A DNA stretch of 64,000 bases, from sequence record PP925842.1; one strand, 5' to 3'. How positions within the stretch are numbered: position 1 is the stretch's first letter; each line of letters starts with the position of its first letter. Positions 38,628 to 40,630 of the stretch are shown piece by piece. The position numbers were made by a program, and so were the translations under genes. Origin of the DNA: Escherichia phage KookSpook. Below the pieces are notes generated by a model. That model searched no databases. It was given only the letters and a program-made list of their open reading frames with translations, and was not told where the DNA came from.

Positions 38628-38809
38628 AATTTATCTCCATGACCTCTTTAAAATATATAATTTAGTATACTATAAAGTACATAAATTATCAACTCATTTT
38701 TAAAAGTACATAAAAGTAAATATTAGGAGCACAATTTAATGGCATTTTAGAGGATACCCAGAAATTTTGTACCCCCACTAAAAATCCGGGGGCAATTTTT
38801 AAAGACCCC

Positions 38810-38838
38810 TTGACATTTTCGCTGGGGTAGTGTAAAGT
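38810..38838 (+). promoter_or_regulatory. sigma70-type promoter (TTGACA-17-TAAAGT) for rightward island
   Basis: ttgaca 38810-38815, taaagt 38833-38838, about 60 nt upstream of ATG 38900. Confidence 0.55.
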
Positions 38839-38899
38839 ATATGTTATGGATGAGTGATCAAAGAGACACACATTTTCTATATACTAGGAGGTGTCAAAA

Positions 38900-39919
38900 A
38901 TGACAGAAGAAGTAACTAAGAGTCCTGAGACCGTCGCTAGCGTTGCAGCAGAACTGCACCGTCACGAGGAATCAGATAAGAAAAAGTGGGAAAAGCTTAA
39001 AGCTCAAGAAAGGGCTGATGAGCATCATTATCATCATCACCATCATGAACACTATGAGGAAGATGATGAAGACGACGAAGAAGATGAGCATGAACATCAT
39101 GGTTATCACAAATATGGAGAAAGAAAAATGCAAGAACCAGTAAACGTATTCACTAACGGCTTCCCTGGCATGGGTGCATTCCCAGCTAACGCAGGTGCTT
39201 TCGGTGGAGAAGGTATGGGTCTATTCGGAGCTATCCTAATTGGTGCTCTATTAACAGGCGGATTTGGTGGTTTCGGTGGTTTTGGCCGTGGTGCTGGTGT
39301 AGCTGCTGAGGGAACTGCTGTGGACGCGATCCTTTCTAACCAAGATACTGCAAGTATTCTAGCTGCAATCAACACTACTCGTACAGAAGCTAACCAAGGC
39401 ACTGGGGCTGTTCTAAGCGCAGTAAACGGTGTAGGAGCTGCTCAAGCTGCTAGCACTCAGCAAGTTCTGACTACTATCTATGGTACAGGTGCTAATCTGT
39501 CAAACCAGATCTGTGCTGAAACTCGTAACGTTATTCAGGGTCAGTTTGATCTTTCTCGTCAGATGGATCAATCTTTCGCTGCTAACCAGATCGCTCGTGC
39601 TCAGGACAAGTTTGATACCGCTCAGATCATGTTTGCTCAGTCTATCCAGACTAACAACCAGTTCGCTGCTGTAGCTGCTCAGGCATGTGCTAACCAGAAC
39701 GCTTTAGAGCGTCAGATAGCTGAATGTTGCTGTGAACTTCAGACTGCAATCGCCGGTGTAACTACTGCGCGTATTCAGGATGAACTTGATGAATGCCGTC
39801 TACGTGAAGCAATTGCTGCAGGTAGTGGTGCAAACGGTCAGGTAATTAATCAAATCGCTGTAAGTCTTGGTGCTATCACTCAGACTCTGGCTGGTCTGCA
39901 GGCTAAACTGCCGGCTTAA
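38900..39919 (+). CDS. His-rich / glycine-zipper / Ala-Gln-rich protein of unknown function
   Basis: 339 aa from ATG 38900 (AGGAGG SD); HHYHHHHHEH acidic-His tract, GxxxG-rich hydrophobic segment; codon usage visibly different from neighbours. Confidence 0.6.
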   Translation: MTEEVTKSPETVASVAAELHRHEESDKKKWEKLKAQERADEHHYHHHHHEHYEEDDEDDEEDEHEHHGYHKYGERKMQEPVNVFTNGFPGMGAFPANAGAFGGEGMGLFGAILIGALLTGGFGGFGGFGRGAGVAAEGTAVDAILSNQDTASILAAINTTRTEANQGTGAVLSAVNGVGAAQAASTQQVLTTIYGTGANLSNQICAETRNVIQGQFDLSRQMDQSFAANQIARAQDKFDTAQIMFAQSIQTNNQFAAVAAQACANQNALERQIAECCCELQTAIAGVTTARIQDELDECRLREAIAAGSGANGQVINQIAVSLGAITQTLAGLQAKLPA

Positions 39920-39941
39920 TAATTAAGGGGAGGAGCCCATT

Positions 39942-40370
39942 ATGAGTAAATATGGTTTTGTAAACAACGGATTTAATCAACAAATGGGCTCCCAGCAGCC
40001 CGTTCCGGGGCTAGATAACCCCTACTTACAACAGTTGCAACAGAGATTGGCAGAAGCACAACAAATGCAAAATTCCATGCAAAATCAGCATGGAAACATC
40101 AATCAAATGCAAATGCAGCCGCAAATGCAAATGCAGCAGATGATGCCTCAACAGATGATGCCTCAACAAATGCAGCAGATGCAACAACCTCAACAGATGA
40201 CTCAACAAACCCAACAACCGCAGGTATCTGCGGAAGGACAAGCTGTTCTAGCCCTTTTCGAAGACTTCGCTAAAACAGAGGATGGAAAGCAACTTGTATC
40301 ACTTATGGGTAAGTTTAATAGTTTCTGTCAAAGTCAAGTTGCAAAAGCGCAAAATGGGGAGAAATCCTAA
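39942..40370 (+). CDS. Gln/Met-rich low-complexity protein
   Basis: 142 aa; QQMQ repeats; SD GGGGAGGAG. Confidence 0.5.
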   Translation: MSKYGFVNNGFNQQMGSQQPVPGLDNPYLQQLQQRLAEAQQMQNSMQNQHGNINQMQMQPQMQMQQMMPQQMMPQQMQQMQQPQQMTQQTQQPQVSAEGQAVLALFEDFAKTEDGKQLVSLMGKFNSFCQSQVAKAQNGEKS

Positions 40371-40379
40371 GGAGTTTAT

Positions 40380-40574
40380 ATGTGTTGTAGAAAACCTACG
40401 TCATGCTGTCCAATGCCTGTAGCACGTTGTTGCTCTCCAGCAATGTTTACGCAAATACCGGCGTTCAATCCCTTTGCCTTTAAACCTACTCTTATCCTGC
40501 CCCCTAGAGTAGATTTTCAGTCAAGATTGGCCTCCCGTATGGGTGGTTGCTGTAATAAGAGTATATGGTTCTAA
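40380..40574 (+). CDS. Cys-rich small protein
   Basis: 64 aa with 9 Cys incl. CC pairs; AAGGAG SD. Confidence 0.45.
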   Translation: MCCRKPTSCCPMPVARCCSPAMFTQIPAFNPFAFKPTLILPPRVDFQSRLASRMGGCCNKSIWF

Positions 40575-40587
40575 AGAACCAAACAAT

Positions 40588-40630
40588 AAAACCCCTGGTC
40601 GAAAGACTCAGGGGTTTTTCTTTTTCTTTA
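40588..40630 (+). terminator. rho-independent terminator
   Basis: acccctg-gtcgaaagact-caggggt followed by long T-run. Confidence 0.75.

Follow-up and report, generated by a model that had tools for sequence, protein, structure and literature searches.

SPFH scaffolds such as HflK/C, the flotillins and YqiK are abundant membrane scaffolds, which have an N-terminal anchor, very long helices rich in Ala, Glu and Gln, and an oligomerization end at the C-terminus. Apolipoprotein, LEA and perilipin-type proteins with 11-residue repeats, and also PspA and Vipp1, are helical proteins which bind to membrane surfaces. In phage phi29, p16.7 and p1 are early, dispensable, membrane-anchored coiled-coil organizers of phage replication. 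T4-type holin T (C1 in phage T5) and the i-spanins (Rz) have a single transmembrane segment (TM), a large helical soluble domain and conserved cysteines. Finally, motifs of the CC or CCC type, such as those of keratin-associated proteins, metallothioneins, Cox17 (CCxC) and vaccinia A27 (CC), are used for disulfide cross-linking or for metal-thiolate clusters. We have analyzed a stretch of 64,000 nucleotides (nt) from Escherichia phage KookSpook (PP925842.1), which we call the window. It contains an operon of three rightward genes, A, B and C (38900-40574), which has features in common with all these proteins.

The gene A product resembles the SPFH scaffolds in the three features just mentioned, and would likewise be an abundant membrane scaffold. 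It has no SPFH domain, and a cage formed by it is putative. Gene A belongs to a family of proteins with a box of three consecutive cysteines, the CCC-box family. Its long members are similar to the apolipoprotein, LEA and perilipin 11-mer proteins and to PspA/Vipp1: They have 11-residue repeats with a hydrophobic period of 3.66 residues. Nevertheless, their Apolipoprotein matches stay below the Pfam gathering score, the T5-type proteins have no such periodicity and those families have no CCC box. The analogy with phi29 p16.7/p1, drawn from general knowledge, is that of an early, non-essential helical oligomer anchored in the membrane of a cell infected by a lytic phage, but gene A, which is larger, has neither sequence similarity to these proteins nor a DNA-binding domain. 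The general plan of holin T and Rz is also similar, but the PHROGs are not the same, T5 has a holin and spanins of its own, and the predicted orientation is the opposite one, with a cytoplasmic C-terminal domain in gene A. As to the Cys-rich cross-linkers and metal clusters, gene C shares their CC-Pro composition and gene A has its CCC on a helix, without detectable homology; the bacterial cytoplasm disfavors disulfides.

To judge from these comparisons, the CCC-box family and the operon appear to lie outside every described kind of system tested. None of the three genes has PF01145, the SPFH/Band 7 domain (there is no Pfam match at all). Gene A is found in PHROG 8119, and the T5 holin C1 (T5.041) is a member of PHROG 860. 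A spanin pair of the Rz/Rz1 type does not correspond to these genes: The gene A product has a tail of 100 amino acids (aa) before its TM, and gene C has no lipobox.

The existence of the operon is already known from T5, a classic model phage, in which its genes are hypothetical. The T5 GenBank record places the orthologs T5.077, T5.078 and T5.079 between 'promoter P12' and an 'efficient bidirectional rho-independent transcription terminator'. A preliminary description of this DNA had proposed an undescribed module, which is not correct as far as the unit itself is concerned. It had also recognized an autonomous unit of three genes oriented against its surroundings. This agrees with the open reading frames (ORFs), the promoter, the terminator and the leftward neighbors: All other genes annotated in T5 between about 11.3 and 54.9 kb are leftward. 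No functional annotation has been given to the operon in the records and papers searched since the T5 genome was annotated. In the 2025 re-annotation of T5 with PHROG and HHpred, T5.077-079 remain of 'unknown function' (PMC11879866, supplement). No paper in the literature searched mentions T5.077-079 or the ECCCE motif, and a preprint on host DNA degradation by T5 does not mention these genes. The early region of phiR2-01, which has been the subject of a proteogenomics paper, has no forward block.

Database searches give a similar picture. Genes A, B and C have no match in Pfam, NCBIfam, PADLOC or a sequence profile search of PDB; for the PADLOC defense and anti-defense models, this holds at E ≤ 0.1. 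Gene A matches PHROG 8119 (1.6e-183, 332 of the 332 profile positions) and gene B matches PHROG 7894 (8.7e-63). Both are labeled 'unknown function'. Gene C has no PHROG match and is a singleton. The preliminary description could not place these proteins in any family and suggested a search for clear homology to a known one. We have carried out this search, and none was found.

The picture is different when viral proteins without annotation are considered. The CCC-box family is defined by the sequence Q(I/L/M)AECCCE(L/I/V)(K/Q), with an Ala/Gln/Asn-rich helix on its N side and TR/ARIxDEL..RLRD/E on its C side. Gene A belongs to it, with a box which reads QIAECCCELQTAIAGVTTARIQDELDECRLRE, and its profile matches diverse members with E values from 1e-13 to 1e-4. 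An exhaustive profile search of 1.84 billion representative sequences gives 104 proteins at E ≤ 1e-3. The distant members have 90-685 aa, no Pfam domain and no name in any source; they share the box Q(I/L/M)AECCCE(L/I/V)K, followed by ...TRxLIN...RLRDxL. The three consecutive cysteines are the only invariant residues of the family: They are found without change in our alignments A1 and A4 and in the approximately 190 relatives collected. The breadth of the family and its invariant triple cysteine are the features most likely to surprise a specialist.

A degenerate scan of IMG/VR at the DNA level for AECCCE[LIV]K finds 48 stretches, compared with approximately 3 expected (an estimate for uniform base composition). 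All 48 are in frame within ORFs similar to those of the family. Contigs from metagenome-assembled genomes (MAGs) of giant viruses contain 13 of the 48, and several more are found in contigs of 388-473 kb. Over 100 further clusters are of the giant-virus type, all of them hypothetical. On the other hand, the same scan in 100,044 bacterial and archaeal species (one genome each) gives four matches, only one of which is a true member, in a short MAG contig. The family is thus almost restricted to viruses, among which it ranges from phages to giant viruses. The giant-virus members are frequently tandem paralogs, and in ten loci a collagen-repeat gene is found at 4 kb or less. Members from giant viruses and from some phages have a strong 11/3 hydrophobic period with ATEKxxAAxxL-like repeats, and the long ones give Apolipoprotein matches below threshold (best 3e-10).

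The contexts of the phage members are diverse. Cultured Clostridium perfringens phages have an anchor-bearing member in their early region, beside a Gln-rich protein. A Firmicute-type contig also has a Gln-rich protein downstream of its CCC-box member, so that a Gln-rich partner is recurrent in phages of this type. Other members are found between terminase and an SU10-type portal (four phage contigs), after genes similar to those for tail fibers (two) or near endolysins (two). A member with the terminase/portal context gave no tblastn match in cultured phages. Several members have a tail rich in Cys and Pro, in the positions L074 9470-10318 and L081 4662-5270 and in the proteins P0031 and P0112. 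These tails (PCPPPCPPPCPPPCP; ITCSPYSSPYDCGIC; DQCCTPAQ; CCCPPCCSSS) are an echo of the separate gene C of the T5 cassette.

The complete cassette is also found in other phage lineages. Homologs of gene A with 38-46% identity have been traced to three contigs, in which genes A, B and C follow in the same order: L005 is a divergent relative of T5, L006 is a GC-rich siphovirus with a Mu-type portal, and L007 is N4-like and codes for a virion RNA polymerase. The cultured counterpart of L006 is Pseudomonas phage KPP23, whose ORF074, ORF073 and ORF072 are genes A, B and C. Four phage lineages thus keep the A-B-C order, with identities of 38-55%. This distribution shows that the cassette moves as a unit between unrelated phage lineages. 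We have considered whether a T5-type promoter travels with it. This idea was rejected: The promoter is common to L005 and is absent from L006 and L007.

We have not found any previous description of the CCC-box family, of its limitation to viruses, of its extension from phages to giant viruses, of the cassette shared by T5-like, KPP23-like and N4-like phages, or of a fusion with an SPFH domain, which is considered below. What appeared as a set of low-complexity hypothetical proteins becomes a mobile cassette of at least four lineages, with a triple-cysteine domain almost exclusive to viruses, a topology which can be tested and a candidate SPFH partner.

The three genes evolve under purifying selection and are therefore real genes. 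The ratio of nonsynonymous to synonymous substitutions (dN/dS), calculated for about 23 T5-like orthologs, reaches 0.146 in gene A, 0.157 in gene B and 0.247 in gene C. The segments of gene A differ in this respect: The C-terminal helix has the lowest value, 0.06, followed by the Gly-rich anchor with 0.09 and the CCC core with 0.10, and the acidic/His segment has the highest, 0.31. The positions of these segments and of the other features of the region are collected in Table 1.

Table 1. Features of the operon and of the convergent gene which follows it (positions in the window).
Feature	Position	Strand	Remarks
Promoter block	38796-38843	+	A/T-rich upstream element, -35, spacer, -10, discriminator ATATG
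Shine-Dalgarno of gene A	38886-38891	+	AGGAGG, read from the sequence
Gene A	38900-39919	+	T5.077, PHROG 8119, 339 aa from ATG
His/acidic tract HHYHHHHHEHYEEDDEDDEEDEHEHH	39023-39100	+	aa 42-67, lineage-variable, dN/dS 0.31
Gly-zipper hydrophobic core LFGAILIGALLTGGF	39221-39265	+	aa 108-122, then conserved GGFGGFGRG
CCC	39725-39733	+	aa 276-278, within family box QIAECCCELQ
C-terminal helix NGQVINQIAVSLGAITQTLAGLQAK	39836-39904	+	Most conserved segment, dN/dS 0.06
Gene B	39942-40370	+	T5.078, PHROG 7894, 142 aa
Gene C	40380-40574	+	T5.079, 64 aa, Cys/Pro-rich
Intrinsic operon terminator	40588-40629	+	Stem 40588-40618 and U-run
SPFH gene terminator	40640-40671	-	-22.2 kcal/mol, back to back with operon terminator
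SPFH/Band-7 membrane protein gene	40695-41642	-	T5.080, Pfam Band_7 2e-19, convergent, outside the operon

The gene A product begins with a charged N-terminal helix, followed by the His/acidic tract, an EPVNVF motif and the Gly-zipper hydrophobic anchor. The anchor is followed by a helical domain of approximately 200 aa, rich in Ala, Gln, Asn and Thr, which leads to the CCC box and the conserved C-terminal helix. An alternative GTG start, three codons upstream of the ATG, would give 342 aa. The His tract is shorter in T5 and is absent from proteins of the L005/L007 type, which belong to distant cassettes. The hydrophobic core has a Kyte-Doolittle value of 2.07 and no charged residue. The C-terminal helix (NGQVINQIAVSLGAITQTLAALQAK) is nearly invariant in the sub-family which also has genes B and C, and it is missing from the wider family. 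An AlphaFold2 model of gene A with 16 homologs, with a predicted local distance difference test score (pLDDT) of 53, consists of long helices, one of them with about 130 residues; a helix at aa 313-335 is present. Apart from the number of cysteines in gene C, considered below, the elements listed in the preliminary description are found in these proteins: an acidic His-rich tract, a glycine-zipper segment, a helical tail with CCC, and a second protein rich in Gln and Met.

The topology of gene A may be deduced from the charges around its anchor. A Gly-rich hydrophobic segment is found near the N-terminus of 51 of the 190 family members, about one quarter (with a crude filter which lets in a few false positives). 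In more than 40 relatives, the N side of the anchor is acidic, with essentially no Lys or Arg, and the C side has one conserved Arg (GGRG). The members with short N-tails have 0-1 positive charges in them. The rest of the family has neither an anchor nor a signal peptide. By the positive-inside rule, we infer that gene A codes for a single-pass inner membrane protein, with its N-terminus out and its C-terminus in. Its acidic, His-rich tail would be periplasmic. The helical domain with the CCC box would be cytoplasmic, a placement suggested both by the charge pattern and by the absence of signal peptides in the anchor-less relatives. The term membrane-active, used in the preliminary description, is plausible for gene A.

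Gene B is found constantly downstream of gene A within the cassette. It has a conserved N-terminal helix (LQQLQQRLAEAQQMQ), a variable linker rich in Gln, Met and Pro, and a conserved C-terminal domain (LFEDFAKTEDGKQLVSLMGKFNSFCQS), with a total of 40 Gln and 16 Met. In all cassettes, the N-terminal helix of gene B is of the LQQLQQKLAEAQQ type, the Q/P/M linker is variable and the C-terminal domain has the consensus LFEEFAxTEDGKQLVxxxGKFNxFCQS. The Met-rich linker is replaced by Q/P-rich linkers in other orthologs. In the ESCO30/ESCO40 records (OM386657), the ortholog of gene B is labeled 'cAMP-dependent protein kinase catalytic subunit', which is almost certainly an artefact of automatic annotation due to low complexity.

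Gene C starts with MCC and contains eight cysteines, not nine as counted previously, in four CC pairs, as well as an NPF motif. The initial MCC, the second CC pair and the (N)PF motif are found in all cassettes (L005, L006/KPP23 ORF072 and L007). Its first residues, MCCRKP, are neither a hydrophobic signal peptide nor a lipobox. Two alleles of its C-terminus (40545-40574 and orthologs) are found among T5-like phages, ...GGCCNKSIWF and ...GGCCTPRVWF. Since genes B and C have no export signals, their products would be cytoplasmic partners of A. They probably dock on the C-terminal helix of gene A, as this helix is confined to the sub-family which carries B and C.

The following model may be tentatively proposed from these data. 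The gene A product would be an inner membrane protein whose helical domain is cytoplasmic, and would oligomerize through the glycine-zipper anchor and the long helices. B and C would bind to the C-terminal end of A. A thiol cluster with metal or disulfide bridges, to which A would contribute its CCC boxes, C its CC pairs and B its single conserved Cys, could then lock the assembly. Made from early to middle infection, the assembly would form an abundant scaffold at the inner membrane face. It might work like scaffolds of the SPFH/flotillin or the PspA/apolipoprotein type, possibly with the adjacent phage SPFH protein, and might condition or protect the host membrane during infection, a function dispensable in the laboratory. 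We regard the complete chain, from membrane anchor to thiol-bridged scaffold, perhaps with the SPFH protein, as possible, with more doubts than certainties.

A wider proposal, which we consider speculative and rather unlikely, is that the CCC-box domain is the hallmark of a hitherto unrecognized class of self-assembling membrane scaffolds specific to viruses. Many long helices would converge, and cysteine thiols, in a ring or a cluster, would lock them together, an arrangement common to tailed phages and giant viruses. The cassette of T5, KPP23-like and N4-like phages would consist of an anchor-rod (A), a Gln-rich adaptor (B) and a Cys/Pro-rich clamp (C), which would assemble during infection into an SPFH-like structure, a cage or a carpet, at the cytoplasmic side of the host membrane. 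If the family has one conserved function, or is in fact a new viral membrane scaffold, hundreds of viral 'dark matter' proteins could be annotated at once. Such a scaffold would also be a rare structural link between the large DNA viruses of bacteria and of eukaryotes.

A possible partner is the SPFH protein, whose gene adjoins the cassette in all 23 T5-like loci examined (23/23). A metagenomic protein, P0265, whose N-terminus is cut by the end of the contig, retains the second half of an SPFH domain, with a Band_7 match (E = 1.7e-8) above the Pfam threshold, followed by helices and a canonical AECCCETK...RIRDAL box. A functional link between the SPFH protein and the cassette may exist: One fusion and one lineage provide a lead. 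A systematic co-occurrence was rejected, as no SPFH gene is found near the cassette in L005, L006 or L007. At the position of the SPFH gene, L005 has two other predicted membrane proteins (6573-8206, - strand), with 190 and 353 aa and no Pfam match.

Several results weigh against the thiol-bridged scaffold. The confidence of the AlphaFold2 model of gene A is low. The hydrophobic periodicity of aa 136-339 and of its sub-segments has no peak at 3.5 or 3.67 residues above that of shuffled sequences; the label 'coiled coil' has been dropped for T5-type gene A, which has no significant heptad or hendecad periodicity. A model of A(136-339), B and C joined by linkers, with paired rows, has a pLDDT of 39 and is uninformative on contacts. 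The N-tail of the T5-type protein has 100 aa, with 11 Lys/Arg and 26 Asp/Glu: The translocation of such a tail would be unusual, and the orientation predicted for the T5 protein is accordingly uncertain. As cytoplasmic cysteines are reduced, locking by disulfides would need either metal bridging or an oxidizing step. The heterogeneous contexts of the family do not indicate an evident common cellular role. Finally, the SPFH link consists of adjacency in a single lineage and one truncated fusion, and the other three cassettes have no SPFH gene nearby.

Other roles of the operon must be considered. The 14 His of gene A, the 16 Met of gene B, the eight Cys of gene C and the CCC of gene A suggest that these proteins might handle metals: The His-rich tail of A, the Met-rich linker of B and the Cys-rich C would bind or buffer soft metals (Cu, Zn, Ni) during infection. 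It is generally known that CC and CCxC-type motifs are classical ligands of Cu(I) and Zn, and His-rich N-tails recur in two distant anchor-bearing relatives, P0030 and P0033. Nevertheless, the His and Met tracts, on which the metal-binding proposal of the preliminary description was based, vary between orthologs, with the highest dN/dS in the acidic/His segment; only the cysteines are conserved, and no metal-binding family (metallothionein, HMA, His-rich Ni/Zn chaperones) gives a profile match. We consider this role unlikely. The operon might also act in superinfection exclusion or against defense systems, blocking the DNA of incoming phages or neutralizing a host defense which acts at the membrane. 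It is accessory, laterally shared, provided with its own promoter and terminator, and dispensable on a laboratory host poor in defenses; it codes for a membrane anchor and, in T5, lies in a variable junction beside the anti-retron gene T5.076. Such a device would be a new membrane-level player in the conflict between phages and hosts. This is also improbable: There are no matches in PADLOC or elsewhere, and the core domain is present in giant viruses and in anchor-less proteins, which favors a host-independent structural chemistry over a bacterial target.

A role in lysis appears even less probable. The glycine-zipper protein would in this case be a viroporin, a holin- or antiholin-like channel, or a spanin-like rod which tunes lysis. 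Small channels and pinholins typically have glycine-zipper TMs (general knowledge), the combination of a single TM and a large helical domain recalls T4 holin T or an i-spanin, and distant relatives are found near endolysin genes (Peptidase_M15_3, Phage_lysozyme) in two contigs. However, T5 has a complete lysis set, with lys, the T-type holin C1 (PHROG 860) and the Rz/Rz1-like spanins T5.044/045, so we have rejected the idea of a main lysis system. Gene A is in PHROG 8119 and not in 860, 812 or 739, gene C has neither signal peptide nor lipobox, about three quarters of the family have no TM, and knock-down of the holin C1 had an effect which was absent for the cassette. It is equally doubtful that gene A codes for a virion or assembly component, a helical protein cross-linked by Cys like vaccinia A27 or keratin and its associated proteins. 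The members found between terminase and portal or after tail-fiber-like genes point in this direction, as do those placed beside collagen-repeat genes in ten giant-virus contigs and the Cys/Pro-rich tails fused to some of them. Against this, T5-like and Clostridium perfringens phages carry the gene in the early region, with an early-type promoter; in KPP23, ORF080 is annotated as 'virion protein', and ORF072-074 are only hypothetical; and the genes are dispensable. Low complexity, the lack of family matches and the lack of a knock-down phenotype might finally suggest non-functional ORFs, or antisense artefacts in a leftward region. This is hardly credible and we consider it refuted: dN/dS is 0.15-0.25, all three genes have strong ribosome-binding sites, the promoter and terminator are conserved and the A-B-C order is kept in four lineages.

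Knock-down data are available for T5. In a CRISPRi-ART study (PMC11879866, supplement), T5.077, T5.078, T5.079 and the neighbor T5.080 were all 'Not Fit', with no effect of the knock-down on fitness; knock-down of holin C1 did affect it. The host-takeover effector also suggested in the preliminary description is not supported, and no phenotype is seen in the laboratory on knock-down. The cassette is conserved but accessory: It is found in many T5-like phages, not in all of them. A core gene of the window, similar to nrdA, is present in 523 phage records, compared with 326 for the cassette; the corresponding values for Klebsiella T5-like phages are 82 and 3. The 2.2 kb around the operon have 87-90% identity with many T5-like phages of Escherichia and Salmonella. 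One genome, L022 (IMGVR_UViG_2974579171), has an in-frame stop in the Gly-rich segment of gene A (near 6330, GGFGGFG*FGGRG), with genes B, C and SPFH intact. This is either a natural loss of function or a sequencing error.

The promoter (38810-38838) has a -35 box TTGACA (38810-38815), a 17-nt spacer and a -10 box TAAAGT (38833-38838), with 10 of the 12 consensus positions. By itself, such a match does not exceed chance expectation: This region is AT-rich, with 10 sites found and 12.6 expected. What makes the promoter convincing is its conservation: The block TTTTAAAGACCCCTTGACATTTT...TGTAAAGTATA, from the A/T-rich upstream element to the -10 box and the first discriminator bases, is invariant in nine phages. 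One of them is L005, the distant T5 relative, in which the promoter block is unchanged in spite of an identity of only about 43% in the gene A product. The block coincides with the homologous promoter P12 of the T5 record, and the sigma70-type promoter proposed from the sequence is confirmed by both facts. Its discriminator, ATATG, is similar to that of the early promoters of T5, for which ATATT has been reported (PMC7472727). A hairpin upstream of the promoter (38772-38792) has been rejected as a feature, since it is no better than shuffled sequences (z = -0.6).

Each gene is preceded by a strong Shine-Dalgarno sequence: AGGAGG for A, GGAGG for B and AAGGAG for C. The intergenic gaps are short, with 22 nt between A and B and 9 nt between B and C. 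Gene A prefers GCT (0.72), GGT (0.66), CGT (0.83) and CAG (0.70), compared with 0.45, 0.42, 0.41 and 0.35 in other genes, a difference of 1.2-1.8 standard deviations. Gene B favors CAA (CAG 0.33). The particular codon choice ascribed to these genes in the preliminary description is thus correct only for gene A, and the contrast with the neighboring genes is mostly a matter of amino acid composition. In fact, the GC content at the third codon position of gene A is 0.32, compared with a window mean of 0.30 ± 0.06, and its overall GC content is 0.47 vs 0.376. As the third positions are at the level of the background, the high GC content corresponds to the abundance of Ala and Gly and not to foreign codon usage, and we have rejected a foreign origin on this basis. 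From its promoter, its ribosome-binding sites and the E. coli-preferred codons of gene A, the operon is built for strong expression.

The strong terminator proposed downstream of gene C also stands. It folds with -19.8 kcal/mol (z = -4.9), its stem has compensatory changes between phages, and a terminator is annotated in T5 at this place. The hairpin of the SPFH gene terminator contains TGCGCT (approximately 40646-40651), with the GCGC of the consensus for T5 single-strand interruptions (nick sites). In the T5 record, a 'major DNA single-chain interruption' is found at the homologous place, between T5.079 and T5.080. It is curious that a nick site should be found inside a region of bidirectional termination.

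The DNA to the left of the cassette (38036-38900) varies among T5-like phages (L001, L002, L003 and L004 were compared). Some of them have genes for a nicotinamide mononucleotide transporter and a NadR-like protein, T5 and ESCO30 have T5.076, a 'primase-like' anti-retron gene, and the window has two small CxxC zinc-finger proteins instead. The cassette thus appears to be placed at a junction prone to recombination. In the Pseudomonas-type and N4-like cassettes, a divergent gene just upstream of gene A codes for a small Zn-ribbon protein (CxxCG..CPECG..F..C..CRxRKSRRxKK). It is found in L006 (4746-4892, - strand), L007 (4756-4911, - strand) and KPP23, as ORF075 (L088 3816-4001, - strand). The copies of L006 and L007 have 53% identity (E = 2e-14), and there is no counterpart in T5-like phages. 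This protein may be a cognate regulator or a fourth member of the cassette.

The window contains a tRNA cluster of the T5 type. An Rfam search of the region gives nothing other than tRNAs, one of which (37771-37845, - strand, 40.3 bits, above the gathering score) is absent from the ARAGORN list. The 2.2 kb of the operon are 100% identical to an unannotated GenBank record, MG065692, 'Campylobacter phage C13', whose host is given as C. jejuni. This label looks doubtful: The close relatives are all T5-like phages of Escherichia or Salmonella.

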